Assembly (NCBI GenBank): GCA_023401925.1 | Contig: JAEXDA010000029.1 | Coordinates: 1-64,000 of the forward strand | Length of the DNA stretch: 64,000 nt | Direction: 5' to 3' | Origin: Bacillota bacterium | GTDB taxonomy: Bacteria > Bacillota > UBA4882 > UBA8346 | Notes under the pieces: model-generated | The model's database searches: none | What the model saw: the letters and a program-made list of their open reading frames with translations, nothing else | Told to the model about the DNA's origin: nothing | Program-made: the position numbers and the translations under genes | Shown here: positions 27,185 to 44,346 of the stretch, in pieces | How positions within the stretch are numbered: position 1 is the stretch's first letter | Layout of the letters: every line of letters starts with the position of its first letter

Positions 27185-27646
27185 AAGGTCTCCTTATTCA
27201 GCTTTGACTACCTGTCAAGCTGCAAAAAATCTATGGACGATACTCAATGGTTCTGCCAAAGGGTTTATTGTAACCAATTTATTTATTATAGCATAACTTT
27301 CGAAGGGATCAACCATAAATGCCTTTATAAACTATCCTTTGAATAAAATTTAATTCGGTTTTATGGACTGAATCGACCAAATTCTCCCCAGGGTGGCGTG
27401 GATACTATAGATCCAAAGCCCCCGGCAGAATTGCGGCTCATTCCCAAAAGAGCCTGCCATTTATAAGTTAAATCGCCAAATTGCGAAAGACGAGAGATTT
27501 GGAGCGGTTCTGCGGTATGTTTGCATAGATTGATATAGCAAAATATGTATAATTTGTTGGCTAATTGAACAGATAAAAACCATTTTTCAACTAATCTTGC
27601 TTGACATTTGAATGGGATCGCCGTAAACTGTAAGCGAGGTGGAATA

Positions 27647-28498
27647 ATGCAAGATATCACCTATGGTTTTGACCACATCAAGCAACCTTTATTCATTTGG
27701 AAAGAACGCTTTCAAGTTCCTCGGAACATGATGAGCAATCATTATCATGACGCTTATGAAATCTATTATTTGCTCGAAGGCGAAAGGGATTACTTCATCA
27801 AAGGCCGTACTTATCATATTCAAAAAGGCGATTTGATACTGATCGATGTCAATGAATTGCATAAAACCATGGATGTATCGGTTCATGAGCGTATTTTGCT
27901 GAATTTCAGGCGGGACTTTTTGCCTGATGCGTTTCAGAATACCTTGCCAAACGATCTTTTTGCCTGTTTTCATCAAGATAGCAACCTATTGCGGCTCAAT
28001 GCTTCAGAACAGGATTTCGTAAGCCGTTTACTATTCAAAATGTTGGCCGAGAATGAAGCGCCGCGGCCCGATTCGAAGCTTTATCTGCAAGTACTCCTGG
28101 CTGAATTGTTGATTTTTTTAAATCGCCAACTGGCTCAGAAATCAACCGGGACTTTTTCTTTTCCCAATCCGATTCATCAAAAAATATCGGAAATTGTAGA
28201 ATACATTACTGTCAATTTTCAGCAAGATATAACCTTGGGAGGAATCTCGGAACGTTTTGGAATCAGTAAATATTACTTGTCACGAATGTTTAAAGAGGTC
28301 ACCGGATTTACACTCATTGAATATCTCAACGGCATCCGGACCAAACAGGCTCAAAAAATGCTGCGGACAACCGCTTTAAATGTCACTGCTATCTCTGAAA
28401 ACGTTGGTTTTGATAGTATCACTCATTTTGGGAGAGTGTTTAAAACAATAACTGGATCTTCACCGCTCCAGTATCGGAAAACGGTTCGGAAAAGCTAA
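27647..28498 (+). CDS. AraC-family transcriptional regulator (cupin sensor plus helix-turn-helix), likely regulator of the adjacent hexuronate operon
   Basis: C-terminal AraC helix-turn-helix (ISERFGISKYYLSRMFKEVTG...TAISENVGFDSITHFGRVFK). Ribosome-binding site GAGGTGG before the ATG at 27647. Confidence 0.8.
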   Translation: MQDITYGFDHIKQPLFIWKERFQVPRNMMSNHYHDAYEIYYLLEGERDYFIKGRTYHIQKGDLILIDVNELHKTMDVSVHERILLNFRRDFLPDAFQNTLPNDLFACFHQDSNLLRLNASEQDFVSRLLFKMLAENEAPRPDSKLYLQVLLAELLIFLNRQLAQKSTGTFSFPNPIHQKISEIVEYITVNFQQDITLGGISERFGISKYYLSRMFKEVTGFTLIEYLNGIRTKQAQKMLRTTALNVTAISENVGFDSITHFGRVFKTITGSSPLQYRKTVRKS

Positions 28499-28588: not shown

Positions 28589-29998
28589 TTGAAATCGTTT
28601 ATGGATCAAGATTTCCTGCTCCAAAATAAGACTGCCGCCGAGCTTTATCATCAGTATGCAAAGCCAATGCCGATCTTCGATTTTCATTGTCATTTAAGCC
28701 CCAAAGAAATTGCGGAGAATAAACAATACCGTAATATCACCGAGCTTTGGCTAGGCGGCGACCATTACAAATGGCGCGCCATGCGCAGCAATGGTGTGGC
28801 TGAACGTTTTATCACCGGAGAGGCAAGTGATGAAGAGAAATTTCAAAAATGGGCTGAAACGATGGTTTGCTGTATCGGCAACCCTCTTTACCATTGGACT
28901 CATTTGGAATTGCGAAGATATTTTGGAATTGATGAGCTTTTATCGCCGAAAACGGCGCAGGGGATTTGGGAGAAATGCAATCAATTATTGAAAGAAGAAG
29001 GCTTTACCGCTCAAGGATTGATCGTCCGTTCCAATGTGAAAGCGATTTGCACCACCGATGATCCGGTTGATTCGTTGGAATACCACCAAGTCTTGGCCAA
29101 TAACAAAAATTTTCCGGTGAAGGTGGCGCCGGCGCTCAGACCTGATAAAGGCATTCATATTGAAAGAGCGGATTTTTTACCCTGGCTCGCTAAACTTGGT
29201 GAAACCGTCCATTCCACGATTACCAATTTGGATGATTTAAAAAACGCCCTTCGCAAGCGGCTGCAATTTTTCCATCAAGCCGGGTGCCGGCTTTCCGACC
29301 ACGCTTTGGACCCTATCCGTTTTCAAGAGGCATCCGATGGAGAAATTGATTTGATCCTCAAGAAAATGCTCCATCATGAAAATTTAACCCAAACGGAAGT
29401 CGAAAAATATCAAACCGGGATGTTGCTCTTTTTAGGAAGGGAATATTCGCGGCTTGGGTGGACTATGCAACTGCATATGGGGGTTATTCGTAACAACAAC
29501 CGGAAGATGATGAGCCTACTGGGTCCCGATACCGGGTTTGACACCATTGGCGATGAATCCTATGCCAAAGATTTGGCGCAATTCCTAAATGCCCTGGATC
29601 AAACGGATGAATTACCTAAAACGATTCTTTATTGCATTAATCCACGTGATAATGAAGTGATTGGGACGATGCTTGGGTGTTTTCAAGGCAGCGAAGCTCC
29701 GGGAAAGGTGCAATTTGGTTCCGGATGGTGGTTTAATGATCAGAAAGACGGCATGAACCGTCAAATGATCGCTTTAGCCAATTTAGGACTTCTATCCCGG
29801 TTTGTGGGGATGGTCACGGATTCCCGCAGTTTCCTTTCCTATACCAGACATGAGTATTTCCGGAGAATTCTTTGCAATCTCCTGGGAGAATGGGTGGAAA
29901 ACGGTGAAGCGCCAAATGATCTTCCATTGCTCGGAAAAATGGTGCAAGATATTTGTTATCATAATGCCAAAAACTATTTCACAGGGATTATTGACTAG
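28589..29998 (+). CDS. uxaC: Glucuronate isomerase
   Basis: FLLQNKTAAELYHQYAKPMPIFDFHCHLSPKEIAEN is the classic UxaC N-terminus. 469 aa. Confidence 0.9.
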   Translation: MKSFMDQDFLLQNKTAAELYHQYAKPMPIFDFHCHLSPKEIAENKQYRNITELWLGGDHYKWRAMRSNGVAERFITGEASDEEKFQKWAETMVCCIGNPLYHWTHLELRRYFGIDELLSPKTAQGIWEKCNQLLKEEGFTAQGLIVRSNVKAICTTDDPVDSLEYHQVLANNKNFPVKVAPALRPDKGIHIERADFLPWLAKLGETVHSTITNLDDLKNALRKRLQFFHQAGCRLSDHALDPIRFQEASDGEIDLILKKMLHHENLTQTEVEKYQTGMLLFLGREYSRLGWTMQLHMGVIRNNNRKMMSLLGPDTGFDTIGDESYAKDLAQFLNALDQTDELPKTILYCINPRDNEVIGTMLGCFQGSEAPGKVQFGSGWWFNDQKDGMNRQMIALANLGLLSRFVGMVTDSRSFLSYTRHEYFRRILCNLLGEWVENGEAPNDLPLLGKMVQDICYHNAKNYFTGIID

Positions 29999-30039
29999 CA
30001 TTTATACATAATTTTTTAGGCAAAATAGGAGCTAACTTC

Positions 30040-31506
30040 ATGAAAAATATTAAGGATGTCAGAAAGAAAACTCACGGAGGATTACCGGAAAAAGTTTTAC
30101 AAATTGGAGAAGGCAACTTTTTACGCGGGTTTGCGGATTGGATGATTGAACGTACAAATAGCGCCGGTTATTTTAACGGTAGCGTGGTACTTTGTCAGCC
30201 TATTCAGGCGGGGATGGCGGAACAAATCAATGCTCAGAACGGTATTTATACGGTGATGATGCGTGGAGTGGAAAATAATGAAATCGTGGAACGAATCCAG
30301 GAGATTACTTCCATTTCACGCTGCATTAACCCTTTTTCCGACTATGAGGCATTGGTTGAAATCGCTCAAAGTCCGGAGTTAAAAGTGATTATCAGCAATA
30401 CAACCGAAGCCGGGATTGCCTATCGGGTCGGTGACAAGCTAACCGATAAACCTCCCGTAAGCTATCCCGCCAAGTTGACCGTATTGCTTTATGAGAGATT
30501 TAAAAAAATGATGGGACAGGAAGATAAAGGATTATTGATTTTACCTGTTGAATTAATCGAAAGAAACGGTGACAACCTTAAACGGTACGTGCTACAATAT
30601 GCAGAAGAGTGGGGACTTGGAGGAGCATTTACCGAGTGGCTGGAAAACGCCAATTGTTTCGCCAATACGCTGGTGGATCGGATCGTTACCGGTTACCCGC
30701 GGGATGAGATCAAAGAAATTCGGGAATCTTTGGGATATGAAGACAATATCCTGGTCACCTGTGAACCTTTTAATCTCTGGGTGATTGAGGCTCCGGAAAA
30801 GTGGGCCAAAGTAATTCCTTTTCAAGGTGATAACGTTCACGTTATTTGGACTTCGGATATGACTCCTTATCGTACCCGTAAAGTGCGTATTTTAAATGGA
30901 GCCCATACCGTGAGCGTGCTGGCGGCATATTTAGCCGGCCATGATATTGTGCTTTCCATGATGAAGGACAAGGTGTTTGAACAGTATTTGAGAAAATGTA
31001 TCTGGAATGAAATCATTCCGAACATTCCTCTCCCCCAAAAAGAGATGAATGAATTTGCCAATGCTGTGTTTGAACGGTTTGCCAATCCTTTTATCAAACA
31101 CCGGCTTCTTGATATCAGCTTGAATTCGGTATCAAAATATAAGGCGCGCTGTTTGCCGTCTTTATTGGATTATATCCATAAATATCATAAATTACCTCAG
31201 ATATTGCCGTTCGGATTTGCCGCATTGATAGCCTTTTACAGAGGCAAAATGCAGGATGGTAAGTATATCGGAAATCGTGGCGAAGAAACCTATGAGATCC
31301 ATGATAACCCTGAAGTCTTGGAGTTTTTCGCCAAAGCGTGGCAGAGTCCGGATAATATCGTCCGAAAGGTTCTCGCAAATACGGATTTTTGGGGAGAGGA
31401 CTTGACGAAAATCAAAGGCCTCCAGGAACTTGTCGAAGAATATCTTGGCTCGATTATTCATGACGGAGCGGCGCTTGCCGTTAAAAATTTCGTGGAGAGT
31501 CTTTGA
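30040..31506 (+). CDS. uxaB: Altronate oxidoreductase / tagaturonate reductase (mannitol dehydrogenase family)
   Basis: VLQIGEGNFLRGFADWMIE N-terminus and length (488 aa) match UxaB. Confidence 0.8.
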   Translation: MKNIKDVRKKTHGGLPEKVLQIGEGNFLRGFADWMIERTNSAGYFNGSVVLCQPIQAGMAEQINAQNGIYTVMMRGVENNEIVERIQEITSISRCINPFSDYEALVEIAQSPELKVIISNTTEAGIAYRVGDKLTDKPPVSYPAKLTVLLYERFKKMMGQEDKGLLILPVELIERNGDNLKRYVLQYAEEWGLGGAFTEWLENANCFANTLVDRIVTGYPRDEIKEIRESLGYEDNILVTCEPFNLWVIEAPEKWAKVIPFQGDNVHVIWTSDMTPYRTRKVRILNGAHTVSVLAAYLAGHDIVLSMMKDKVFEQYLRKCIWNEIIPNIPLPQKEMNEFANAVFERFANPFIKHRLLDISLNSVSKYKARCLPSLLDYIHKYHKLPQILPFGFAALIAFYRGKMQDGKYIGNRGEETYEIHDNPEVLEFFAKAWQSPDNIVRKVLANTDFWGEDLTKIKGLQELVEEYLGSIIHDGAALAVKNFVESL

Positions 31507-31507
31507 A

Positions 31508-32941
31508 ATGGATAAATTCATTAAAATTTCTCCCGGGGATAATGTAGTCGTTGCCGTCCAGGCTACTGAAGCCATACCGTTCGGGCATAAAAAAGCCCTT
31601 TGGGATATCAAACAAGGCGAAAACATCATTAAATACGGTTATCCGATTGGACATGCCACCAGCGACATCCAGGCCGGTAGTCATGTCCATACTCATAACT
31701 TGAAAACCAATCTCTCAGGAGTCATCGAATACTCCTACAAAGGAAACTTTCCGGCGGATTCCCAAAAACCGGCTGCAACTTTTCAGGGTTATCCGCGCAA
31801 AAACGGAAAAATCGGGATCCGCAATGAAGTATGGATTATTCCAACCGTAGGTTGTGTTAATAATACGGCTGAATTGATTCAAAAGAAAGCTCAAGAAAAA
31901 TACGGACATTTAGGTGATGGAATTTTCTGTTTTACTCATCCCTACGGCTGTTCGCAAATGGGTGAAGATCAACTCTATACTCAGAAGCTCCTCGCTGGGC
32001 TGGTGAATCATCCCAATGCCGCTGGAGTGCTGGTATTGGGACTTGGCTGTGAAAATAACCATGTTGACGTATTCCGGCCTTTTCTGGGAGATTACGATCA
32101 GGACCGGGTCAAGTTTCTGGTCACTCAGAATGTTGAAGATGAAATTGCAGAAGGAATGAGTTTGATTGGTGATCTGGCTGAGCGGGCCTCCATGGAAAAA
32201 AGGCAACCGGTGAGCGCCGAACATTTGATTATCGGGCTTAAATGCGGTGGTTCGGATGCTTTTTCCGGTATCACGGCCAATCCTCTTTGCGGTAAAATCA
32301 CCAATGAAATATCCGCCCAAGGTGGGAGGGTTATTTTAACTGAAGTGCCTGAAATGTTCGGCGCTGAAACTATCTTGATGGAACGGGCAGCCGATGTTGA
32401 GGTTTTTGATGAAACTGTGGCGATGATTAACGGTTTCAAGGACTATTATACTGCTCACCATCAGGTGATTTATGAAAATCCTTCCCCTGGAAATAAAGCG
32501 GGAGGAATCACAACTCTTGAGGAAAAGTCTCTGGGCTGTATTCAAAAGGGCGGTCAGGCTAAGGTAACCGCGGTTTTGAAATATGGTGAGCCATGTCTGA
32601 AAAAGGGCTTGAATCTGCTTACCGGACCGGGAAACGATATCGTTTCCTGCACCAATATGACGGCAGCCGGAGCGCATCTGATTTTATTTACCACCGGGAG
32701 GGGGACCCCGTTGGGCGCCCCGGTTCCGACAATAAAAATTGCATCCAATTCCGGCTTAGCCGCGCGTAAACCCGGCTGGATCGACTACGATGCAGGAAAA
32801 ATCCTTGATAATTTTAGTATGGAAGATAGCGCCGGTGAATTATGGCAATTGATTTTAAATGTAGCCTCAGGGAAGAAAACCCAAAATGAGGAGCATGGAT
32901 ATAGAGAGATTGCCATTTTTAAAGATGGCGTTACTTTATAA
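31508..32941 (+). CDS. uxaA: Altronate dehydratase
   Basis: MDKFIKISPGDNVVVAV...IKYGYPIGHATSDIQAGSHVHTHN SAF-domain N-terminus and overall UxaA/GarD layout. Real start is the ATG at 31508; the listed ORF is extended upstream. Confidence 0.85.
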   Translation: MDKFIKISPGDNVVVAVQATEAIPFGHKKALWDIKQGENIIKYGYPIGHATSDIQAGSHVHTHNLKTNLSGVIEYSYKGNFPADSQKPAATFQGYPRKNGKIGIRNEVWIIPTVGCVNNTAELIQKKAQEKYGHLGDGIFCFTHPYGCSQMGEDQLYTQKLLAGLVNHPNAAGVLVLGLGCENNHVDVFRPFLGDYDQDRVKFLVTQNVEDEIAEGMSLIGDLAERASMEKRQPVSAEHLIIGLKCGGSDAFSGITANPLCGKITNEISAQGGRVILTEVPEMFGAETILMERAADVEVFDETVAMINGFKDYYTAHHQVIYENPSPGNKAGGITTLEEKSLGCIQKGGQAKVTAVLKYGEPCLKKGLNLLTGPGNDIVSCTNMTAAGAHLILFTTGRGTPLGAPVPTIKIASNSGLAARKPGWIDYDAGKILDNFSMEDSAGELWQLILNVASGKKTQNEEHGYREIAIFKDGVTL

Positions 32942-32965
32942 AATTGAAACAGGAGGGTATGTCAC

Positions 32966-34063
32966 TTGAGTTTGGATCTGAAATTACGCGAGAAAAGTTC
33001 GTATGATGCAATTTCGTTAGGAGAAATTATGCTGCGCCTCGATCCCGGTGATGGCCGGATTCGGACAGCCAGGCAATTCAAAGCCTGGGAAGGCGGGGGC
33101 GAGTATAATGTAGTCCGGGGTTTACGCAAGTGTTTTGGACTTAAAACTGCGGCTGTTACCGCGTTGGCTGATAATGAAATCGGGCGTTTGGTTGAAGACT
33201 TCATGATGCAGGGCGGGGTCGATACATCACTGATTAAATGGTTTCCCTATGATGGAATCGGCAGAACCGTTCGTAACGGCTTGAATTTTACCGAGCGCGG
33301 ATTCGGTATCCGTGGCGCCGTTGGTGTTTCGGACCGGGGAAATACGGCTGTATCCCAATTAAAACCGGGAGATATCGACTGGGAATATGTTTTTGGGACC
33401 CTGGGAGTCCGCTGGCTCCACACCGGGGGTATCTTCGCCGCGTTATCGGAGACAACGGCCCAGGTTGTTATTGAGGCCGTGATGGCTGCTAAAAAGCATG
33501 GCACGGTTGTATCCTATGATTTAAATTATCGTCCATCCATGTGGAAAAATATTGGCGGTAAGGAAAAAGCCCAGGAAGTCAACAAAACGATTGCCAAATA
33601 TATTGACGTTATGATTGGAAACGAAGAAGATTTTACCGCTTGTCTTGGTTTTGAAGTGGAAGGGAATGATGAGAACCTCAAGGAGTTAAACATGGAGGGG
33701 TATAAAAAAATGCTTGGTAATGCAACCAAAGCCTATCCCAACTTTAAAGTCATTGCTACCACTTTGCGGACTGTGAAAACAGCCACGGTAAATGATTGGA
33801 AAGCCATGGTTTATGCAGACGGAAATATTTATTTTTCCAATGAGTATCCAAACCTGGAAATCTACGATCGGGTCGGTGGCGGTGACAGTTTTGCCTCCGG
33901 TCTGATTTACGGGTTAATGACAACCGGAGACGCCCAAAAGGCGGTTAATTACGGAGCTGCCCACGGCGCACTGGCAATGACCACACCGGGTGATACTTCC
34001 ATGGCAACCAAAAATGAAGTTGAGGCGCTCATCAAAGGGGCCGGTGCAAGGGTGCAAAGATAA
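32966..34063 (+). CDS. kdgK: PfkB-family sugar kinase, 2-dehydro-3-deoxygluconokinase-like
   Basis: Ribokinase-fold motifs (GGGEYNV...; C-terminal DRVGGGDSFASG anion hole). Position between uxaA and eda. Confidence 0.75.
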   Translation: MSLDLKLREKSSYDAISLGEIMLRLDPGDGRIRTARQFKAWEGGGEYNVVRGLRKCFGLKTAAVTALADNEIGRLVEDFMMQGGVDTSLIKWFPYDGIGRTVRNGLNFTERGFGIRGAVGVSDRGNTAVSQLKPGDIDWEYVFGTLGVRWLHTGGIFAALSETTAQVVIEAVMAAKKHGTVVSYDLNYRPSMWKNIGGKEKAQEVNKTIAKYIDVMIGNEEDFTACLGFEVEGNDENLKELNMEGYKKMLGNATKAYPNFKVIATTLRTVKTATVNDWKAMVYADGNIYFSNEYPNLEIYDRVGGGDSFASGLIYGLMTTGDAQKAVNYGAAHGALAMTTPGDTSMATKNEVEALIKGAGARVQR

Positions 34064-34113
34064 GGAAAACTTTCGAAGTAAGGTTGATCAATATGAATGA
34101 GGTGTGAAAAGAA

Positions 34114-34758
34114 ATGAAAAAAGAACAGGTATTATCCAAAATCAAAGAGGCCGGTATTGTGGCTGTGGTACGGGCTGAGTCCAGCGATCAAGCCAAACGT
34201 ATTGCCGATGCTTGTATAGAAGGCGGAGTTGCGGCAATCGAATTGACATTTACTGTTCCCGGGGCTCATCGGGTCATCGAGGAATTGGCCGCTACCTATA
34301 CGAAGGGTGAAATCATTTTAGGCGCCGGGACGGTGCTCGATCCGGAAACGGCCAGAATTGCAATACTTTCCGGTGCGGAATATATTGTGAGCCCTTGTTT
34401 GAATCCGGATATGGTCCGTTTGTGCAACCGTTATCGAATCGCCTGCATGCCGGGGATTATGACCCTTCGGGATGCGGTGGAAGCTTTGGAACTGGGTGTT
34501 GATATTCTTAAACTTTTCCCGGGTGAAGCTTTCGGACCCAAAATGATTAAAGCCATTGCCGGTCCGTTGCCACAGGCGAGCATTATGCCAACGGGCGGAG
34601 TCGATGTGGATAACGTCGGAGAATGGATTAAAGCGGGAGCTGTGGCCGTGGGCGCAGGCGGCGCTTTGACTGCGGGAGCCAAAAAAGGCGACTATGAATC
34701 CATAACCAAACTGGGCCGTGAATTTGTAAACAATATCAAGGCGGCACGCCAAAAATAA
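34114..34758 (+). CDS. eda: KDPG / KHG aldolase
   Basis: Eda-family TIM-barrel aldolase motifs (AIELTFT...GAGTV...KLFPG). 214 aa. Confidence 0.85.
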   Translation: MKKEQVLSKIKEAGIVAVVRAESSDQAKRIADACIEGGVAAIELTFTVPGAHRVIEELAATYTKGEIILGAGTVLDPETARIAILSGAEYIVSPCLNPDMVRLCNRYRIACMPGIMTLRDAVEALELGVDILKLFPGEAFGPKMIKAIAGPLPQASIMPTGGVDVDNVGEWIKAGAVAVGAGGALTAGAKKGDYESITKLGREFVNNIKAARQK

Positions 34759-35081: not shown

Positions 35082-35756
35082 ATGATGAAACGAATCATTC
35101 ATTTGTCAACTTTGATACTTTTATCAGTACTTCTATTTTCCTCTGGTACGGGATACACAATAATCCGGGCAATTCCAGTAGAGTATCTTGCCGGATCATC
35201 CAAGATCGGCTGGATTGAGAAATTAGCTGATAAGAGTTTTTCGGGTTTGAGTACCACCACCCACCCAACGATTGCTGTCAATTTGTTCAGGGATGAACGT
35301 GAAAATACCGATAGTACAGGTGCTATTTACAGCCGGTCCGGAAAAAAGCTTGAGACCCTGGTGACTGACAAAAAACCAACGGAAATAATTGAAAAGAATC
35401 TGGCCGAACAGCTCCAAAAAGCCGGGTATAACGTTATTCTCACTTCGGGTTGGAATTTGAATGCTGAAAAAGTACCTAGTTATTTGGGAACTGATTTGAT
35501 TTTAGGCGGACAAGTGAAAGAGTTCTGGGTGGAGTCCAAGGCGGGGGTGATCACTTCGACCATACGCTCTAAAGTTGTTTATGACCTGGTAATTGCCAAT
35601 ATTCATCAAAAAAGGCTAATCTATAAAGGGCAAGCGGAAGGTAACGATTCCCGAAAATCCCTGGCCCATGCTAGCGATTATTTTTGGACGGATATGGGAA
35701 CTTCTCTCAGCCAATCTTTAACCAAAGCAATCAATGAACCGGTGAGTCAGAAATAG
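35082..35756 (+). CDS. Secreted or lipoprotein-like hypothetical protein
   Basis: N-terminal signal sequence. No recognisable catalytic motifs. 224 aa. Confidence 0.35.
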   Translation: MMKRIIHLSTLILLSVLLFSSGTGYTIIRAIPVEYLAGSSKIGWIEKLADKSFSGLSTTTHPTIAVNLFRDERENTDSTGAIYSRSGKKLETLVTDKKPTEIIEKNLAEQLQKAGYNVILTSGWNLNAEKVPSYLGTDLILGGQVKEFWVESKAGVITSTIRSKVVYDLVIANIHQKRLIYKGQAEGNDSRKSLAHASDYFWTDMGTSLSQSLTKAINEPVSQK

Positions 35757-35825: not shown

Positions 35826-37421
35826 TTAATAATTTAAACGAAATGTTAAATCAATAAAGTTCTTCGCAAAATCCCAACCGATACCGAATTTAATACAATC
35901 GACTTCCCGCGCAATGCCGGCAACTTGGCTCACCCATTCGTCATTTCGCAGATTATAGGTACCGGTGGTATAAACAAAATAATGAGGGTTAAAGGGAAGT
36001 TTCATACCGTAAATGAGATTGCCGCCCAGCCGGTAACCATCGACCACTAAAAACTTTTTCTCCAAATGTCCCCAATCCTGGTCTGAGCCACTAAGGTTTT
36101 GGATATAAAGATAACTCAAATTGAAATCAGGCGTCAGTTGGTAATCCAAACGGTAGCCCCCATCGATCCCCTGATAGGTTGTATCAGACTTTTCATCATA
36201 AAGAAGTCTTCCAAATACTCCCACTTGCCAGTTTCCGTAATCAGTTCTCCAGGCCTTTTTAGTGAAAGTCGCTCCAAGTTCGCGCTTGGGGTCGGCATTC
36301 AAGTCCGTTTTTCCATCAATGGTGAGATTATACAGATCCCAGTCGATCTGATAAATATCATTGACGCTAAAGATTCCTTCCGAATCGAAGTTCACGTCGA
36401 TTTCATTGGACAAGTCGTTCCATTCATAAATTCGTCCGATGGTAACCCGGGAAGGTTTGTCATTGGTATTGATTTCCCCACTAAACCGCGGACTGACCCG
36501 GGCTTTTTTCCTTTTTGGAGCGGATAGATCTGCTGAACCTCCCGATTGGACATTGTTATCGGATGGCTGAGTGGCAGCACTGGTTGACTCCGTGGAATTA
36601 ATTTGCGGGTCCGAATTTCCCACCTTTTCGTCAGCAGCTTGTGCTTTATTGATTACATCATTCAAGTCGGGTTGTGTGCCTTGGTTAGCACTTAAATTGA
36701 TATGGGGCAATGATTCCCCCCGAAGGGCCATATGAGGCAAATAAAGCAAGGGAATCCCCATGATCTTGAAGACTACTTTCTCCATATAAACATGTTTACC
36801 TTGGCTGATCATCCTTTTACCAGAAAATACATAGTCGGCAAAATCTTTACGGGGACAACGGGTTATCGTTGCCGGGGAAATGATTACCGTGTCTCCCTTG
36901 AATTCGGCGTTTTTTCCAGTCACATAAAAATCCTTGTCTTTGCCCTTAATAACGCCCTGGATGGACGGACCGCCTTCGCCGGTATTTTGACTCAGGTTAA
37001 AACGAATCTTTTCCATTGAAAAACTTTGCTCCGGATTTTCCAGTTGAATGGAACCGGATGCCTCCAGCCAACCGGTTTTAAGATTGAGGGTAAGATGATT
37101 GGCCCGGATGGATATGGTATCTTTCATAAGCATTACGTTGCCATCAAGGACTACCAAGTTTTGATTTCCATAAAAAATCAAAGAATCCGTCTCGATCGTG
37201 ATATTATCAAGAGTCACTCGGGCGTGGCTCATATTGGTAAAGGTGTTTTGTTTCGGGTCATATTGCTGCTTTCCCATGGTATCGATGGTGATATTCTTAA
37301 AATGAATCGTTTTGACCGGGCTGTCGGCCAAAGCGGGCATGGCAAACAAGACGATTGACACGATAGTTATCAGCCATATTAAGCACGCGTTCGTGCGGAG
37401 TTTTTGTAAATACAAACGCAT
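35826..37421 (-). CDS. LptD/OstA-family outer-membrane protein (OstA-like N-terminal beta-jellyroll, low-complexity linker, beta-rich C-terminus ending in an aromatic residue)
   Basis: Signal peptide. Repeated antiparallel-strand pattern typical of the LptA/LptD N-domain. C-terminus ...TFRLNY. Confidence 0.45.
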   Translation of the reverse strand: MRLYLQKLRTNACLIWLITIVSIVLFAMPALADSPVKTIHFKNITIDTMGKQQYDPKQNTFTNMSHARVTLDNITIETDSLIFYGNQNLVVLDGNVMLMKDTISIRANHLTLNLKTGWLEASGSIQLENPEQSFSMEKIRFNLSQNTGEGGPSIQGVIKGKDKDFYVTGKNAEFKGDTVIISPATITRCPRKDFADYVFSGKRMISQGKHVYMEKVVFKIMGIPLLYLPHMALRGESLPHINLSANQGTQPDLNDVINKAQAADEKVGNSDPQINSTESTSAATQPSDNNVQSGGSADLSAPKRKKARVSPRFSGEINTNDKPSRVTIGRIYEWNDLSNEIDVNFDSEGIFSVNDIYQIDWDLYNLTIDGKTDLNADPKRELGATFTKKAWRTDYGNWQVGVFGRLLYDEKSDTTYQGIDGGYRLDYQLTPDFNLSYLYIQNLSGSDQDWGHLEKKFLVVDGYRLGGNLIYGMKLPFNPHYFVYTTGTYNLRNDEWVSQVAGIAREVDCIKFGIGWDFAKNFIDLTFRLNY

Positions 37422-37777
37422 TCAAGCTCCTGATAAGACATTTATTTAATTATATTCCATTTCACTTTCAATAACGCAATTTATCATAATTAGTTGTATT
37501 AAATTCTCGTAAAAAAATGAGAATCCCTGCTTTTTATCACCAGGCCATTTACAAGTAACACGTTCTCTCAATAACCGCTCAATGATTATGAACGTTTACT
37601 TGAGCAGAGCGTATCTTCCCCATTTCTGATTGCCGGTTACTCTACTAGTTTCCCCAACCATCGTTGAAAGATTAATCCCTATTAAATATATTATTTTAAT
37701 TTGACTTATAGGTCTAGATACCCTATGATGAGTTTAAGGAAAAAGATGAAATATTAGGATGCTGGAGGCTCGAAGAT

Positions 37778-38575
37778 TTGGATAAAATTCAAGCGTTGAA
37801 AGAATTGTTGCAGAAAATGCCAGGAGCGGTAATTGCTTATTCCGGCGGAGTTGACAGTACTTTTTTGGCAGTGATGGCGCATGAGGTATTAGGAGATAAG
37901 ACTTTAGCCATTACTGCAGTTTCTCCCACTTACCCCGAACAACAATTAACGGAAGCCGAAGCCTTGGCTAAAAAATTCGGTCTAGCCCATAAAATAATTC
38001 AAACCAATGAATTTGATGATACCAACTATGTTGCCAATCCGGCCAACCGCTGTTATTATTGTAAGTTGTCCTTGTTCAAGGAATTATGCCGTATCGCGAG
38101 TGAAAAAGGTTGGGTTGTCTTAGACGGCGCCAACATAGACGACTTATCAGATCATAGGCCCGGCCATCAGGCCGCTAAAGAAATGGGAGTTCGTAGCCCT
38201 TTGCAGGAAGCGGGTTTATCAAAACAGGATATCAGGGATTTCTCAAGGAAAAAGTCTTTGCCAACCTGGAATAAGCCTGCGTATGCTTGTCTCGCCTCAC
38301 GGATTCCTTATGGAAGCAAAATCACTCCCGAAAATTTGAAACGGATTGATAGGGCGGAGAATTTTTTAAACGATTTGGGCTTCACGCAGTTCAGAGTGAG
38401 GGATCATTTTCCCATTGCCAGAGTTGAAGTTTCTGCCGAGCAGTTGGATACAGCGTGGCAAAACCGGGAGAAAATCAGTACTGGACTGCATGAGTTGGGA
38501 TTCACTTACGTTACCCTTGATTTGGATGGTTTCCGTTCCGGGAGCATGAATGAAACCCTCAAGATGAAGCTTTAA
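37778..38575 (+). CDS. LarE-like PP-loop ATP pyrophosphatase (TIGR00268 family)
   Basis: AYSGGVDSTFL PP-loop motif, ~265 aa, and overall similarity to the sacrificial sulfur transferase LarE. No larB or larC in the window. Confidence 0.65.
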   Translation: MDKIQALKELLQKMPGAVIAYSGGVDSTFLAVMAHEVLGDKTLAITAVSPTYPEQQLTEAEALAKKFGLAHKIIQTNEFDDTNYVANPANRCYYCKLSLFKELCRIASEKGWVVLDGANIDDLSDHRPGHQAAKEMGVRSPLQEAGLSKQDIRDFSRKKSLPTWNKPAYACLASRIPYGSKITPENLKRIDRAENFLNDLGFTQFRVRDHFPIARVEVSAEQLDTAWQNREKISTGLHELGFTYVTLDLDGFRSGSMNETLKMKL

Positions 38576-38900
38576 GATATTGAGAATCATTTTCAGTTCC
38601 AGAACTATGCCTTTAGCTGCAAAAGATGCTAAAGAAAGGTTATATCGTACAGTATCTCCGTGTTTCTGTGGTCAGATCATTTGGCCGCCAAGACACGGAG
38701 ATTTTAGTTTTATCAATGGGTTCCAGTAAAAGCGAGCTGTGCCAACTCGAACGGGCTTTCTAAAGAGAACATGGTGAACTTTCCTTTCTCCTCTCCCTGC
38801 CCGGGTTCTCTTGGTTTGATTTACTGTTTTAGTGAATAGATTGAGAACGAAATGTTCAACCTAAGGCTAATAATTTATTTCAAGTCGAAGCTGGTCACTA

Positions 38901-39896
38901 ATGCGAATCGGAATCCCCAATACATTATCCACAGCCTATCACTTAACTTATTGGCAAGAATTTTTCAGTCAGCTGGGTGTTGATGTCGTTATTTCCAAGG
39001 GTAGCGGCAAAGAATCCATCGACATCGGTTCTAAGCTGATTCCTCACGAGTTTTGCATTCCTGTTAAAGCCTTTCTTGGTCATATCGTGGATTTGGTAAC
39101 CCAAAAGGTTGATCGGATTTTGGTCCCCAGATTACTGGATTGGAAGAATCATGAATTTTTTTGCCCGAAACTTACTGGACTTCCCGAAATCGTAAAATAT
39201 GCGCTGGAACTCGATGATGAGTTGTTTTTTGTACCCACGGTTACCTGTAATGGATTGGACCCCGAAATTATCCAGTACCCGCAGCCTAAGATTCAGTCGG
39301 CTACTCAATTAAAGCGGGCCCAAAATAGCGCCTTGCATCACTGGCGACAGACTCTGACTGATTGCCGTAAAAGACAGGTGATTTTATCGCAGACCGGGAT
39401 CAAGGAACAAAATCCAGGCGGCGCAGGTGAAGTTCGCCTGGGATTACTGGGCTATGCCTATATCCTTTATGATCCTTTTATTAGTAAAGGACTGATTCAG
39501 AAATTGGCCGCGATGGGATGTCAGATAACCACCTGGGAAATGCTTGAGAGCGAGAAAATAACCGGAAGTTTAAAAGAACTGAAAAGGCCCATGTTTTGGA
39601 ATTTCGGAAGGATTTTGCTGGGCGCGGGCCTTAATTTTTTGGCCGATAGCGAAATCGATGGAGTTATTTATGTTACTCCTTTCGGATGCGGCCCGGATTC
39701 AATCACTGTCAAGTTACTTGGCTTGCAAGCCTCAATGATCCAGAAACCTTTTTTACAAATCACACTGGATGAACACAGTGAAGACGGGCATTTGAAAACC
39801 CGTTTGGAAGCGTTTGTCGATATGTTCGCTTACGGAAAGAAGGGACAGCCCGTTGAAAATAACCTTCCCATACTTGGGTCCGGTACTTGCTTATGA
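38901..39896 (+). CDS. DUF2229 / HgdAB-like subunit of a benzoyl-CoA reductase / 2-hydroxyacyl-CoA dehydratase superfamily enzyme (YjiM-like)
   Basis: Conserved Cys motifs HEFCIPVKAF, FFCPKLTG and PFGCGPDS characteristic of the family. Confidence 0.55.
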   Translation: MRIGIPNTLSTAYHLTYWQEFFSQLGVDVVISKGSGKESIDIGSKLIPHEFCIPVKAFLGHIVDLVTQKVDRILVPRLLDWKNHEFFCPKLTGLPEIVKYALELDDELFFVPTVTCNGLDPEIIQYPQPKIQSATQLKRAQNSALHHWRQTLTDCRKRQVILSQTGIKEQNPGGAGEVRLGLLGYAYILYDPFISKGLIQKLAAMGCQITTWEMLESEKITGSLKELKRPMFWNFGRILLGAGLNFLADSEIDGVIYVTPFGCGPDSITVKLLGLQASMIQKPFLQITLDEHSEDGHLKTRLEAFVDMFAYGKKGQPVENNLPILGSGTCL

Positions 39897-40920
39897 GAAG
39901 ATGTTTGAACTCTTCGGTCACCAAGTGGTAGCGCCATCACCGCCAACTCCCAGGACTATTGAGCTTGGTGTCAAATATAGTCCGGAGTTTATCTGTTTTC
40001 CATTCAAAATTATTCTGGGAAGTTATTTGGATGCGATCCATCGCGGCGCCGAACTGATTGTGACCAGCGGAGGCGTCGGAGCTTGCAGGGCCGGCTATTT
40101 CGGGGCCCTAAGCGAGAAAATTTTGAACCAGTTGGGGTATAAGGTAAAAGTTTTGGTTTTCGATAGTGTCGTTAATGAATTTGCCACCTTTTACCGGCAG
40201 GGCCAGGAAATCCGTAATCATAAATCAATCGTTCAAACCATCGCGATACTATATTTAACCATCCAGCTTATTTTTGTCTTGGATAAATATGAAAAAAAAA
40301 TCAGCCAGCTTCGCCCCTATGAAAAAGTCCCCGGAACATGCAAGCGGAAATGGCGGGCGATTCAGACTTTGCTGGGTGGAAGCGGCAGCTTAAAAGAATT
40401 ACGGGCCAATATATCTCAGGCGGATCGATTGGTTGATGCGATCGAAGTTGAACCCAAGGAAGATAGCATTAAAATCGGCCTGCTGGGTGAAATTTATATG
40501 GTGATGGACGGCCCCATGAATGAGGAATTCGAAGAAAAATTAGCTTCCTTAGGGGTTCAGGTGGTACGGTACCGTTATATCTCTCAATGGTTGAAAAATG
40601 CGGTTCGGCCCGATTATGGGCTGTTAAAAAAGGCGGACCGTTATTTACAGTATGACCTTGGTGGTCATGAACGGGAGAACATCGGCCATATGATTCGCTT
40701 TAAAGAATTGGGTTACGATGGGGTCATCCATTTGCTGCCTTTTGGGTGCATGCCGGAACTTGTGACCCAGACGGTTATTCCTAAATTGATGAAAGATTTG
40801 GACTTGCCGATTTTATCGCTATCTCTCGATGAACAAACCGGATGGCTCAATAATCAGGTGAGACTGGAAGCTTTTGTCGATTTGCTGAAAAATCGCAAAG
40901 AATTGTTGAAGGAAGGATAA
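39853..40920 (+). CDS. Second DUF2229 / HgdAB-like subunit
   Basis: EFICFPFK and LLPFGCMPE motifs. Probable TTG start at 39853 with an AAGGGA ribosome-binding site; the listed ORF starts earlier and only overlaps the upstream gene because it is over-extended. Confidence 0.55.
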   Translation: MKITFPYLGPVLAYEKMFELFGHQVVAPSPPTPRTIELGVKYSPEFICFPFKIILGSYLDAIHRGAELIVTSGGVGACRAGYFGALSEKILNQLGYKVKVLVFDSVVNEFATFYRQGQEIRNHKSIVQTIAILYLTIQLIFVLDKYEKKISQLRPYEKVPGTCKRKWRAIQTLLGGSGSLKELRANISQADRLVDAIEVEPKEDSIKIGLLGEIYMVMDGPMNEEFEEKLASLGVQVVRYRYISQWLKNAVRPDYGLLKKADRYLQYDLGGHERENIGHMIRFKELGYDGVIHLLPFGCMPELVTQTVIPKLMKDLDLPILSLSLDEQTGWLNNQVRLEAFVDLLKNRKELLKEG

Positions 40921-40989
40921 AGAGGAATGGCAACGGCCGGTTAAGGGCTGGCGGTAATGGCTAATTAAAGGAAAAGGAATCGATAAAAA

Positions 40990-41955
40990 GTGGAAAAAGT
41001 ATACTTGGGAGTCGATGTCGGCTCGGTGAGTACCAATATCGTCGGTATTGATGAACAGGAGTCGGTAATTTTTTCTAAATATTTAAGGAATGACGGGCAA
41101 CCCCTTGAGGTCATTCAAGATGGCTTGAAAAAGATTGATCATGAATTCGTGAATTTAAAAGTGATGGGAGTCGGCACTACTGGGAGCGGTAGGTTACTCG
41201 CCGGAACAATGCTTGGAGCCGATATCATCAAGAATGAAATCACCGCCCATGCTTATGCAGCAGTTCATTTCCATCCTGAGGTGCAAGCCATTATTGAAAT
41301 TGGCGGTCAGGACTCCAAATTAATTATCATAACCCATGGTGTAGTCAGCGATTTTTCTATGAATACCGTCTGTGCGGCCGGTACCGGTTCGTTTCTTGAT
41401 CATCAAGCGGAAAGACTCAAAGTCCCGATTGAGGACTTTGGCGATCTCGCTTTATCAGCCCGGAAACGGGTACGTATCGCCGGAAGGTGTACGGTATTCG
41501 CTGAATCCGACATGATTGCCAAGCAGCAATTCGGTTTTTCCAAGGCCGAGATTATCAATGGCTTATGTGATGCATTGGTTCGTAATTATCTTAACAATTT
41601 AGGCCGGGATAAATCAATCCTTGCTCCGGTTTTGTTTCAGGGTGGTGTTGCCGCCAACAAGGGGATCAAGGCTGCTTTTGAGAGGGAATTGCACATTCCG
41701 GTGATTGTACCAAGATATTTCAACGTAATGGGTGCAATTGGCGCTGCGCTGCTGGCTCGGAAACAATTGCGGAAAACTGGTTGCGATACCGGGTTTAGGG
41801 GATTTGAACAGTTGTTGCTTGACTTCGCTCCCACTTCATTTGAATGTGAGGGTTGCAGCAATTGCTGCGAAGTCATTCAGGTTGAACAGGAGCAGCGGAT
41901 TATCGCCATCTGGGGCGATAAATGCGGCAAATACAGCAACCGGATTTCAGCTTAA
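40990..41955 (+). CDS. CoA-substrate-specific enzyme activase (HgdC/BcrAD/YjiL-like ASKHA ATPase, [4Fe-4S] electron donor) with an unusual Cys-rich C-terminal tail
   Basis: LGVDVGSVSTN...GTTGSGR...CAAGTGSF ASKHA motifs. C-terminus FECEGCSNCCEV...GDKCGKY. GTG start. Confidence 0.7.
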   Translation: MEKVYLGVDVGSVSTNIVGIDEQESVIFSKYLRNDGQPLEVIQDGLKKIDHEFVNLKVMGVGTTGSGRLLAGTMLGADIIKNEITAHAYAAVHFHPEVQAIIEIGGQDSKLIIITHGVVSDFSMNTVCAAGTGSFLDHQAERLKVPIEDFGDLALSARKRVRIAGRCTVFAESDMIAKQQFGFSKAEIINGLCDALVRNYLNNLGRDKSILAPVLFQGGVAANKGIKAAFERELHIPVIVPRYFNVMGAIGAALLARKQLRKTGCDTGFRGFEQLLLDFAPTSFECEGCSNCCEVIQVEQEQRIIAIWGDKCGKYSNRISA

Positions 41956-41965
41956 TCGATTCTAG

Positions 41966-41997
41966 CCGTCCTCAAATTTCTTTTTGGGACGGTTTAT
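41966..41997 (+). terminator. Intrinsic terminator after the activase gene
   Basis: CCGTCC-loop-GGACGG followed by TTTATTT. Confidence 0.5.
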
Positions 41998-42555
41998 TTA
42001 TGCGCTAAAACAGATTCAAAAATTTTGGAGGAAAGTGCCGCTGAATTAGCTTTGATGCACCGGCTTTTGTACCTTTCCCTGGGTTCCCGCCTATAGGTTC
42101 CATCGATAAAAATGAATATTGTCCAGAAGGGTTGATTGTGATATAGTATATACAAAAGGGTAAATATGGTAAATAAGGTAAAACAAAGAAAAGTTAATTC
42201 GTCATCAAACCCCAATGGACCACCAGGACAGTCCGGTTGACGCCAGCCATCTAGTAAGTGCGAAAAATAAAACGTTGATTCAGGACGAGCTTTTAAAACC
42301 TAGTTTGAAATCGAAAATACTTAAACTTGTCACCGGTGTCATCGCGAAAAGTAAGGATTGCCGACATAAAAAATAAATGGGTTTTAAACTCCGGCACCGT
42401 TCTTGCTTTCTGCCGTTTTTTCCATCGTTGACGGTGAGCCCGGTGCGGCATGGATAACCCAAACGATGCCTCGGAAGGGGGGAGACGTTGCATAAGATTC
42501 ATAGTGGTTGAGGAAGGGAAAGAGTTTTTTTAAGCGGGAAACCAAAAAAGAAAGG

Positions 42556-44346
42556 ATGGTTTTGGTCATGGTAAAAAAATCTTACGGGTTACGGTATGTC
42601 ATCCCCGTCATCATGATCTGTCTTCTGGCTGCCACCTTTACTTGGACATCCCAGATTTCCAAAGCGGCCAACTATAATGTCAATATCGATACGAGCACAA
42701 CCTACCAAACCTTGGAAGGGTTTGGCGCCGCCACGGCTTGGTACACCAGCTGGCTCACCCAGCATCCGAATAAAGCCGAGATCTACGACTTGCTTTTTAA
42801 CGGCTTGGGACTCGATATCATTCGTTTTCGAAATACTTACGGAAGTCGCAATGGGGCGTCCTTTGCTCCCGATGAACCGGAAATTGTACAGCAAGCGAGC
42901 CTATCGTTGGGACATCCCATTAAAGTACTCGTCAGCTCCTGGACACCGCCTTCGGATTTGAAAGCGGGCGGCACTTTAAACGGCGGAACCCTGGCCAAGG
43001 TAAGCGGCGCTTTTAATTATAGTGGCTTTGCCGATTACTGGTACAACTCCATTAATGGGTATACCGGCAAAGGGATTATCCCCGATTATATCAGCATTCA
43101 AAATGAGCCTGATTATGAAAACACAGGGTGGGAAACTTGTATTTTTAAACCGACCGAAGATTCAAATTATCCCGGCTATGGTAAAGCCTTGGACGCCGTT
43201 TACAGCCGTATCCAGTCTATGGCAAACAAGCCGAAAATCCTGGGACCGGAGACCGCCGGCATCGGCAGCAACCTGGTGCAAAACTATTGCGCCAACATGA
43301 ATCTTTCGGAAGTTTACGGCATTGATCATCATTTATATAATGGCGGGGATGCCAATAGCCCGGACAGTTTCAATTCCGCTCTTCAAAGTTTAGCCAGTTC
43401 CTACTATCCGGGCAAACCGCTTTTCCAAACCGAATATGATCAAGGCACGGTTTTTACCACCGGCCAGTTGATGATTAACTCCCTGGTTTACGAAAACGCC
43501 AGCGCCTATTTCTACTGGGATCTGATTTGGACCATGGACCAGCGACCGCTGGTGAATTTGGAAGACCCCAATAACCGCAGCGGTTGGACGACAGCCCGGG
43601 GTTATAAAGTCTCCGACTTCTATTATGTGTTCAAGCACTTTAGTAAATATACCGACCCCGGATATAAGCGAGTGGCCGCTACAGCCGACAACAGCAATGT
43701 CCGGACTGTGGCCTTCATTTCGCCGGACCAAAAACAATTGACGGTTATCTTGCTGAATAATAGCAGTTCACAAAATTCAGTGGCCTTAAATCTGAACGGT
43801 TACCCGGTGGGAAGTTCGGCCATTTACCGCACCACTCCCGGAGGCAGTGAAAGGTTTGCCAGTGTGGGCGCTTTAGGAAGTGACAATACCGTCACCTTAC
43901 CGGCCCAGTCCATTGCTACAGTAGTGATTATGAGTTCAGGTCCGACTCCGACGGTAACACCGACTGTGACGCCTACAATAACACCGACGATAACGCCAAC
44001 AGTAACTCCTACGCCGCCAGTCAACGGTGTTACGGTAACCTATGCCATCCAAAACGATTGGGGTAACGGATCGACCATCAATGTAACGATCAAAAACAAC
44101 GGTACTTCGGCAATCAATGATTGGCAGTTGGCCTGGACCTTCCCGGGCAACCAGAAGATCACCAATCTGTGGAACGGCAGTTACACCCAAAACGGGGCGA
44201 ACGTAACTGTGACCAATCTCAGTTATAATAGTGGCATCCCTGCGGGGGGCGGTACGGTGAATTTCGGGTTCAACATCAGCTATAGCGGTTCCAACGCCAA
44301 ACCGGCCGGTTTTACCCTTAACGGGACCCCAACCCAAGTTCAATAA
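42556..44346 (+). CDS. Secreted GH30-family glycoside hydrolase (glucuronoxylanase XynC-like) with a Pro/Thr linker and a C-terminal CBM2-like carbohydrate-binding module
   Basis: Signal peptide. TLEGFGAA...SWTPPSDLK...IQNEPDY match GH30_8 catalytic-region motifs. Linker PTPTVTPTVTPTITPTITPTVTPTPP. C-terminal WQLAWTF...FGFN CBM2-like module. Confidence 0.7.
   Translation: MVLVMVKKSYGLRYVIPVIMICLLAATFTWTSQISKAANYNVNIDTSTTYQTLEGFGAATAWYTSWLTQHPNKAEIYDLLFNGLGLDIIRFRNTYGSRNGASFAPDEPEIVQQASLSLGHPIKVLVSSWTPPSDLKAGGTLNGGTLAKVSGAFNYSGFADYWYNSINGYTGKGIIPDYISIQNEPDYENTGWETCIFKPTEDSNYPGYGKALDAVYSRIQSMANKPKILGPETAGIGSNLVQNYCANMNLSEVYGIDHHLYNGGDANSPDSFNSALQSLASSYYPGKPLFQTEYDQGTVFTTGQLMINSLVYENASAYFYWDLIWTMDQRPLVNLEDPNNRSGWTTARGYKVSDFYYVFKHFSKYTDPGYKRVAATADNSNVRTVAFISPDQKQLTVILLNNSSSQNSVALNLNGYPVGSSAIYRTTPGGSERFASVGALGSDNTVTLPAQSIATVVIMSSGPTPTVTPTVTPTITPTITPTVTPTPPVNGVTVTYAIQNDWGNGSTINVTIKNNGTSAINDWQLAWTFPGNQKITNLWNGSYTQNGANVTVTNLSYNSGIPAGGGTVNFGFNISYSGSNAKPAGFTLNGTPTQVQ
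43935..44012 (+). repeat. Imperfect 12-bp tandem repeats encoding the (T-P-T-V/I) linker
   Basis: ccgac(t/g)ccgac.gtaaca repeated about 6 times. Confidence 0.6.

Follow-up and report, generated by a model that had tools for sequence, protein, structure and literature searches.

A three-gene module of two DUF2229 reductase subunits and a single activase, related to the ether-lipid enzymes PlsA-PlsR and Ger

Genes at the locus

The stretch analysed here (the window) comprises 64,000 nucleotides from a Bacillota bacterium (GTDB lineage Bacillota; UBA4882; UBA8346), positions 1 to 64,000 of contig JAEXDA010000029.1 in assembly GCA_023401925.1. Between 38901 and 41955 lie three open reading frames (ORFs), all on the forward strand and all confirmed by an ORF check, which encode two small proteins with the DUF2229 domain, SubA and SubB, and an activase (Table 1). 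These three genes very probably form one operon for a three-component, ATP-driven iron-sulfur (Fe-S) reductase. An earlier note on the window, made from the sequence alone, had described two DUF2229-like ORFs and an activase with a set of cysteine-containing motifs; all of them are present. Relatives were collected by a scan of one genome per species, which gave at least 590 related stretches, and the best 80 loci were analysed. All 80 have separate genes of ca. 330 codons for the reductase subunits, and the motif cysteines are invariant in the 79-80 homologues of each subunit.

The longest ORF for SubB spans 39814-40920 and would encode 368 aa. The SubB homologues (n = 80) begin with MK[IV][ST]FPYMG, and the equivalent start in the window is a TTG codon at 39853, so the protein most likely has 355 aa. 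From this start the gene overlaps the 3' end of SubA by 44 nt. In the clade of the window, SubA has a C-terminal extension (39840-39896; …ENNLPILGSGTCL) that overlaps the SubB start. A similar extension is found in some distant homologues (FSSHGKS…, LSIHGNN…; alignment columns 386-410), and AlphaFold models it at a predicted local distance difference test score (pLDDT) below 50. A reading of the locus as a pseudogene, or as a gene split by a frameshift, was rejected because three separate ORFs are kept across phyla.

The three genes look like one transcription unit, apart from the LarE gene upstream, because there are hairpins on both sides of them. Both hairpins were found by reading and folding the sequence. 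The one after LarE has a folding energy of -29.8 kcal/mol (z -6.8) and is followed by AUUUUAGUUUUA; the one directly after the activase stop codon has -15.9 kcal/mol (z -4.0) and is followed by the U-rich UUUAUUUAU. In each case none of 200 shuffled sequences was as stable. A scan for consensus promoters and terminators gave no more sites than in shuffled sequence, and its loop limit made it miss both hairpins. No RNA element was found in an Rfam scan of 37300-42600 with E-values up to 1.

Table 1. Features of the three-gene module and its borders in the window
Feature	Position	Strand	Description
LarE	37778-38575	+	PP-loop ATPase gene, 325 bp upstream of SubA
Terminator-like hairpin and U-tract after LarE	38654-38712 (hairpin 38654-38702)	+	From folding against shuffles
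SubA	38901-39896	+	331 aa; DUF2229 reductase subunit equivalent to Red1, the C-terminal reductase domain of PlsA; invariant C52, C88, C263
SubB	39853-40920	+	355 aa from TTG 39853; second reductase subunit, counterpart of PlsR (Red2); invariant C48, C78, C299 (355-aa numbering)
Activase	40990-41955	+	321 aa; single-domain ASKHA ATPase, HgdC/HadI type; invariant C128, C167
C-terminal four-cysteine domain of the activase	41824-41943	+	Residues ~279-318; predicted three-stranded beta unit
Terminator-like hairpin and U-rich tail after the activase stop	41964-42003 (hairpin 41964-41994)	+	From folding against shuffles; 3' end of the operon

SubA and SubB belong to the DUF2229 branch of a radical-reductase superfamily

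SubA and SubB are members of the superfamily of benzoyl-CoA reductases (BCR), 2-hydroxyacyl-CoA dehydratases (HAD) and double-cubane cluster proteins (DCCP), and fall in its DUF2229 branch. The Pfam DUF2229 model (PF09989) has a gathering threshold of 29.4 bits, and both proteins are above it – SubA with 138.1 bits over profile positions 1-217 of 218, and SubB with 39.2 bits in its N-terminal part. The HGD-D model (PF06050) reached 34.7 bits in SubA, over residues 247-308 only (the last 62 residues), and 30 bits in SubB, over residues 235-357 (123 residues). The catalytic subunits of the superfamily share a two-domain Rossmann-like fold, which SubA and SubB also have. In structure, the dehydratases, the arene reductases and the DCCP are all about equally distant from them.

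Each subunit has exactly three cysteines that are invariant among its homologues (Table 1). The motifs EFCIP, FFCPK and PFGCGPDS are present in SubA, and EFICFP, GACRAG and PFGCMPE in SubB. The same three cysteines are 100% conserved across six groups: SubA, SubB, and the two reductase domains, Red1 and Red2, of each of two types (I and II) of fusion protein described below. The [4Fe-4S] subunits of 2-hydroxyacyl-CoA dehydratases have the same three-cysteine pattern, and the triads here would likewise be the ligands of Fe-S clusters. The assignment to the superfamily, already made in the earlier note, holds because of these invariant cysteines together with the model and alignment of an HgdC-type activase, and the fold agrees with it. 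The description of the subunits as HgdAB-like did not hold, as HGD-D is matched at their C-terminal ends only and they belong to the DUF2229 branch. The subunits are indeed smaller than HgdA and HgdB, but the contrast had been overstated: among solved structures the beta-type subunits have 373-386 aa, the alpha-type subunits 399-438 aa, and the DCCP 421 aa.

The activase carries a conserved four-cysteine tail

That the third gene encodes an HgdC-type activase was borne out. The protein matched BcrAD_BadFG with 156 bits and TIGR00241 with 187 bits (cut-off 125), and its sequence matched HgdC (1hux; E 2e-36), MbdQ (1e-34) and HadI (7e-32). The same three proteins were retrieved by Foldseek with the AlphaFold 2 model (pLDDT 89.2), at target template modelling (TM) scores of 0.88-0.91 over ~264 columns. 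The invariant C128 and C167 are found in two stretches (CAAGTG and CTVFAES) that align with HgdC; by this alignment they would be the ligands of a [4Fe-4S] cluster between two activase subunits. The superfamily's cognate ASKHA ATPase, with its two cluster-bridging cysteines, is thus encoded alongside SubA and SubB, and it is adjacent to them in 76 of the 80 loci, the remaining four being contig ends.

Beyond the ATPase domain the protein ends in a tail with four further cysteines, C286, C289, C293 and C312, each invariant in 74 of 74 module activases. They are part of the motif F-x-C-x2-C-x-N-x-C-E-[VI] ... G-D-[KR]-C-G-[KR]-[WY]. Two other cysteines of the window's activase, C265 and C292, are not conserved. 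In the AlphaFold 2 model the tail has strands at residues 279-285, 294-300 and 303-308, with pLDDT ~80-85. A counterpart is absent from every solved activator compared (241-268 aa); the activators of the HadBC-HadI and HgdAB-HgdC systems lack the tail, whereas the module activase has it. The tail is predicted to be a further metal site, for zinc or for an Fe-S cluster.

The tail has close relatives in much larger proteins. A HMMER search with the activase against 1.84 billion representative proteins gave 6487 matches with E <=1e-3, of which 1229 were below 1e-30. The top matches were fusion proteins of ~1400 aa, in which residues ~327-641 – the second activase domain and its tail – aligned with residues 3-316 to 3-319 of the query, tail included, at 42-48% identity. 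In an alignment of 32 type II fusions, C289 is found in 32/32 and each of the other three cysteines in at least 90%, and the tail is nearly identical to that of the module (e.g. FECKKCENLCEI...YGSRCGRFE). A type I fusion has HCKGCTNNC...CNRC at the same position. The spacing is C-x2-C-x3-C...C in the module and C-x2-C-x3-C...C-x2-C in type I, and the module tail aligns with the type II motif and with the first part of the type I motif. By these alignments, the four-cysteine tail is a family hallmark, the same motif as that after the second activase domain of the fusions. The earlier note had rightly picked out the cysteine-rich tail, which is real and conserved, but had taken it for a peculiar extra of this activase.

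A link to selenium, by way of a paper on a ‘CoA-substrate-specific enzyme activase’, was rejected, as that paper concerns a different HGD-D system. An activase entry in the ethanol-stress proteomics of C. thermocellum gave no useful information.

The module is a sister lineage to the PlsA-type fusions

Only two members of the DUF2229 branch have been characterised, PlsA-PlsR and Ger, and both act on membrane lipid esters, not on acyl-CoA. In the literature searched, DUF2229 is discussed only in the context of ether lipids. PlsA-PlsR, the plasmalogen synthase (PMC9702350), is encoded by CPE1194/1195 in C. perfringens and as one fused protein of ~1400 aa in, among others, Listeria, Enterococcus and Lachnospiraceae. 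Ger, glycerol ester reductase (T. maritima Tmari_0479, D. alkenivorans SHJ90043), is a PlsA-like enzyme in which DUF2229 is the ‘reduction’ domain; it gives saturated ethers, is sufficient alone in anaerobic E. coli, and has a ‘BBD’ core that is conserved in all alkyl-ether producers (PMC13159169). PlsA-PlsR has the same set of domains as the module – an HgdC-type activase, a cysteine-rich motif after it, a DUF2229 Red1 and a Red2 – and the BBD... architecture of Ger holds them as well (PMC13159169). The order of Red1 and Red2 is that of SubA and SubB, and the three cysteines per reductase domain and the signature residues are common to both systems.

One genome carries the module and a PlsA-type fusion side by side. 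In Pseudobacteroides cellulosolvens (locus L038, 8001-15579), the module is followed after 212 bp by a gene on the same strand for a 1412-aa fusion of the order activase-activase-DUF2229-...; none of the other 79 loci has a PlsA-type gene within its flanks. The pairing hints at a shared or sequential role. SubA aligns with residues 674-989 of this fusion (24% identity, E 2e-16), SubB with residues 1009-1376 (20%, E 5e-7) and the activase with residues 321-615 (34%, E 2e-47), the last being the second activase domain with its cysteine motif. In tblastn comparisons at several loci, fusion residues 674-1402 ran collinear across SubA and SubB, with ~23% identity over ~770 aa and E-values down to 1e-34.

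The P. cellulosolvens fusion is of type I. It shares 52.8% identity, across 99% of the fusion, with a gene of Listeria monocytogenes, 55% with one of Collinsella and 47% with one of Fusobacterium, and the link between type I and PlsA is based on these matches and on statements in the literature; plsA orthologues and plasmalogens are both reported for Listeria (PMC9702350). Compared directly with the Listeria gene, SubA of the window has 26.6% identity (E 4e-15). The type II fusions come mostly from metagenome-assembled genomes (MAGs) of Thermodesulfobacteriota / Deltaproteobacteria and, by taxonomy alone, are probably Ger. From sequence, PlsA and Ger are indistinguishable (PMC13274423). The two types are ~28% identical to each other. 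The module proteins of the window are closest to the type II fusions: SubA is 24-30% identical to type II and 24% to type I, SubB 21-25% and 19%, and the activase 44-48% and 34%.

A neighbour-joining tree was built from 12 sequences per group (Poisson distances, 321 trimmed columns, 100 bootstraps); it is a crude tree in which long-branch effects are possible. SubA with Red1 of both types was separated from SubB with Red2 of both types in 100/100 bootstraps, which pairs SubA with the reductase domain of PlsA, and SubB with PlsR. Together with the collinear alignment, this places the same pair of paralogues, Red1 then Red2, in the module and in the fusions. SubA was monophyletic in 100 bootstraps and SubB in 98, and the two fusion types grouped without the module in 87/100 for Red1 and 94/100 for Red2. 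On this tree, SubA and SubB appear to go back to a duplication that preceded the parting of module and fusions, and the module appears to be a third lineage that branches deeply, as sister to the two fusion types. The three are about equally far apart – mean identity is 23-26% between the module and a fusion type, and 25% between the two types. Seventeen Red1-specific positions are common to SubA and both fusion types (G4, P6, S32, P54, K56, G60, L65, P76, A140, Y187, D191, W233, G264, D266, D290, E291 and R301), and an RPYE motif is common to SubB and Red2. Of the two checks proposed in the earlier note, the conservation of the cluster cysteines came out in its favour, and the phylogeny put the subunits beside, not inside, a clade of known specificity.

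Distribution and gene neighborhood

The module is found in Clostridia (Alkaliphilus, Natronincola, Geosporobacter, Lutispora, Caloranaerobacter, Pseudobacteroides and Thermoanaerobacter) and, beyond them, in Halanaerobiales, Thermotogota, one Calditrichales strain and one Gastranaerophilales MAG. The gene order is SubA-SubB-activase in 75 of the 80 loci; four are cut by contig ends, and a single locus (L078, 8001-11150) has the order SubA-activase-SubB. The activase is the best-conserved part of the module, with 59-77% identity.

One locus (L001) is from the MAG Bacillota bacterium OH_SBB_108, of the same species as the window, with 95% protein identity. This MAG carries a second, divergent module on another contig (L033, 8001-11043), whose SubA is 33% identical to that of the window, so that a single genome holds two lineages of the module. 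Two MAGs of the window's clade also have an extra SubB-like gene (L002, 15236-16381, reverse strand; L004, 3198-4328, forward strand). These encode proteins of 376-381 aa with 33-35% identity, keep the three cysteine motifs, and lie a few kb from spoVA-like genes. The gene in L004 is preceded by no ORF of at least 120 aa, and no SubA or activase partner was seen; none was seen in L002 either, where the locus ends ~550 bp beyond the gene.

The module has no conserved partner gene. Its neighbors were analysed by clustering the flanking ORFs, by their position relative to the module, and by Pfam counts of the 267 nearest ORFs. Across the 80 loci, no cluster of flanking genes occurred in more than 13, and among the 267 ORFs no Pfam family occurred more than eight times. 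The commonest families were TetR_N and class I/II aminotransferase, followed by BioY, FUR and hemerythrin. CoA-transferases or CoA-ligases, 2-hydroxyacid dehydrogenases, acyl-CoA dehydrogenases and electron transfer flavoproteins were all missing from the 25 commonest families on each side. In 8 of ~70 loci (e.g. L066, 7352-7978), one of the two ORFs closest to the module on its upstream side encodes a TetR-family regulator; a TetR/AcrR regulator is also found upstream of the E. faecalis pls gene (PMC9702350). FUR and hemerythrin genes recur downstream of the module, in six loci each.

Proposed mechanism and substrate

HgdC/HadI, BCR and DCCP-R share an established mechanism of ATP-driven electron injection. 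DCCP/DCCP-R and the class I BCRs (BzdNOPQ, MbdONPQ) have the same superfamily fold as the module and the same injection logic, and the module would work along these lines. The reduced activase would be a homodimer with one [4Fe-4S] cluster between its subunits, held by C128 and C167, and would take its electron from ferredoxin or flavodoxin. After binding ATP the dimer would dock on the reductase, and ATP hydrolysis would drive one electron of very low potential into the SubA-SubB heterodimer. Each subunit of this heterodimer would hold a three-cysteine [4Fe-4S] cluster with one iron free for the carbonyl of the substrate, which would be converted to a ketyl radical. The four-cysteine tail of the activase may serve in docking on SubA/SubB or as an electron relay. 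While the domain and fold assignments, the conserved cysteines, the pairing of SubA with Red1 and of SubB with Red2, the borders of the operon and the conservation of the module among species are shown by the data, we infer the types of cluster, the homodimer and heterodimer, the route of the electron and, as discussed next, the lipid substrate; the reductase would presumably be oxygen-sensitive.

The earlier note held that no substrate could be named, which now seems too pessimistic, as the characterised relatives PlsA/PlsR and Ger act on membrane lipid esters. We tentatively favour, from the sequence comparisons, a membrane-glycerolipid ester that would be reduced to an ether bond. The reasons for this choice are the conserved signature residues of Red1 and Red2, the tail in common with the fusions, the absence of pathway neighbors and the PlsA-type gene alongside the module in one genome. 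The absence of linked CoA-pathway genes and of shared neighbor families fits an enzyme acting on lipids that are already in the membrane, and the PlsA-PlsR gene, like the module, stands without pathway neighbors. By homology with PlsA-PlsR and Ger, the ester carbonyl would be reduced, and possibly dehydrated, to give a vinyl-ether or alkyl-ether bond. In the published proposal for PlsA/PlsR, the sn-1 ester is reduced twice in succession, by one electron each time, and is then protonated and dehydrated to the vinyl ether.

A number of observations weigh against a glycerolipid ester. The module lies in a sister lineage and not inside the clade of the characterised enzymes, and because it is sister to the fusions and not nested in them, a transfer of substrate by homology is weak. 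PlsA has two tandem activases fused N-terminal to Red1, and Ger is likewise a fusion with a double activase, whereas the module is split and has one free 321-aa activase encoded last, downstream of SubB; this different arrangement speaks against a simple transfer of function. No lipid-synthesis family is among the 25 commonest neighbor families per side (267 ORFs). The comparison with PlsA and Ger was made through relatives, not through the tested proteins of C. perfringens, E. faecalis, T. maritima and D. alkenivorans, and we know of no experiment on any member of the three-gene lineage.

Other points on this side also favour an alternative that is less likely but serious, namely that the same machinery, with ATP-driven injection of electrons into a SubA-SubB [4Fe-4S] heterodimer, acts on a carbonyl, ester or unsaturated compound that is not a glycerolipid. 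The module is a separate deep clade, and the identity of its reductase subunits to the characterised-type fusions is low (19-30%). At least one genome (L038) carries a PlsA-type gene in addition to the module, and OH_SBB_108 has two modules, which argues against simple redundancy and allows for another substrate. The orphan SubB-like paralogues in related MAGs likewise count against a simple transfer of function and form, with the duplication and the coexistence, a pattern that fits diversification of substrates, and the superfamily as a whole is chemically diverse (dehydratases, arene reductases, DCCP). Against this alternative, the module keeps the Red1-specific residues and the PlsA-type cysteine tail, and none of the 80 loci has linked pathway genes that would supply or consume a soluble substrate.

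A further reading, rather unlikely in our view, keeps the enzyme in lipid metabolism and gives it a non-redundant role, in a reaction that neither PlsA nor Ger accounts for. It might saturate an sn-1 vinyl ether to an alkyl ether, or form ether bonds at sn-2 or in another class of lipid. The module would then account for the ‘yet-unknown enzyme’ and for the PlsA homologues without an activation domain that are discussed in a 2026 study (PMC13274423; see below), and its place next to the PlsA-type gene of P. cellulosolvens would be explained by the two acting one after the other in a single pathway.

Public annotation would make the module a 2-hydroxyacyl-CoA dehydratase or aryl-CoA reductase of the classical kind, together with its activator; the RefSeq names of the Monoglobus pectinilyticus copy are ‘acyl-CoA dehydratase activase-related protein / 2-hydroxyacyl-CoA dehydratase / acyl-CoA dehydratase activase’. 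This is improbable. A 2-hydroxyacyl-CoA dehydratase would be expected to have a full-length HGD-D domain and linkage to a CoA-transferase and a 2-hydroxyacid dehydrogenase, whereas here HGD-D covers only the short C-terminal segments given above, at 30-35 bits, DUF2229 spans SubA from end to end, and CoA-pathway families are missing from the commonest neighbors. No NCBIfam dehydratase or reductase model was matched by the proteins of the module, and the phylogeny groups the subunits with PlsA/PlsR-type domains. The BCRs, with their aromatic CoA ester substrates, use two different fused or associated ATPase subunits. The screen of 2-hydroxyacyl-CoA and aromatic CoA substrates suggested in the earlier note is thus probably aimed at the wrong substrates.

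A DCCP-like reductase of small molecules is, if anything, a little less probable still. DCCP is a homodimer with a double-cubane cluster, unlike the SubA-SubB pair, and the NCBIfam model for double-cubane cluster proteins (NF040772, cut-off 350 bits) gave 21.3 bits for SubA and no match for SubB.

The least probable reading, that the module works with the upstream LarE in, for example, sulfur insertion or cofactor maturation, has in its favour that the genes are on the same strand and 325 bp apart in the window and in L001, and has against it the absence of LarE from the flanks of the other 79 loci, the strong hairpin after LarE, and the lack of conserved neighbors of any kind. The LarE-like ATPase upstream of SubA had been described in the earlier note as standing there without larB or larC, and this was confirmed: the gene matches TIGR00268 with 335 bits (cut-off 150) and is a true LarE, and LarA, LarB and LarC families were not found in any tested ORF of the window. 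It is a neighbor and not part of the module, since the linkage is seen only in one species (1/80 loci) and the terminator-like hairpin lies between. The protein has a C-x2-C pair (NRCYYCK) and the cysteine of CLASR, a three-cysteine pattern that we take to mark a LarE of the [4Fe-4S] type rather than of the sacrificial type.

Other features of the window

Just upstream of LarE are two ORFs, at 35082-35756 (forward strand, 224 aa) and 35826-37421 (reverse strand, 531 aa), that encode proteins with hydrophobic, signal-like N-terminal segments. Neither had an NCBIfam match at E <=1e-5, and both are kept in L001. A complete cluster for hexuronate catabolism occupies 28589-34758 on the forward strand, with genes for glucuronate isomerase, tagaturonate reductase, an altronate/galactarate dehydratase-like protein, 2-keto-3-deoxygluconate (KDG) kinase and 2-keto-3-deoxy-6-phosphogluconate (KDPG) aldolase. 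An AraC-type regulator is found at 27608-28498, and a xylanase similar to glycoside hydrolase family 30, with a carbohydrate-binding module, at 42508-44346. The organism of the window is a degrader of plant polysaccharides.

Significance for ether-lipid biology

Additional PlsA homologues without an activation domain, which remain unexplained, have been noted in all screened Bacillota, in a 2026 study of the biosynthesis of branched glycerol dialkyl glycerol tetraethers (brGDGT) in that phylum (PMC13274423). The same study considers that a ‘yet-unknown enzyme’ may convert vinyl ethers to alkyl ethers (PMC13274423). The genes for SubA and SubB fit the description of these homologues. What is added here is that such genes are paired, in a conserved operon, with a single activase of their own that bears the cysteine motif of the family. 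No description of the three-gene form was found in the literature searched.

The module is new in its architecture and phylogenetic position but belongs to a known kind of enzyme and is not categorically new; it is widespread among anaerobes and generically annotated. Ether lipids and plasmalogens bear on the debate about the ‘lipid divide’, on palaeoclimate proxies based on brGDGT, and on the signalling of gut microbes to their host. To our knowledge, PlsA-PlsR and Ger are the only anaerobic enzymes known to make ether-lipid or plasmalogen bonds, and genome screens for the capacity to form ether lipids look for large fused proteins. If the module makes or modifies ether lipids, such screens would miss many producers, and the PlsA homologues without an activation domain would be explained. 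If it acts on another substrate, it would represent a new substrate class for ATP-driven radical reductases.

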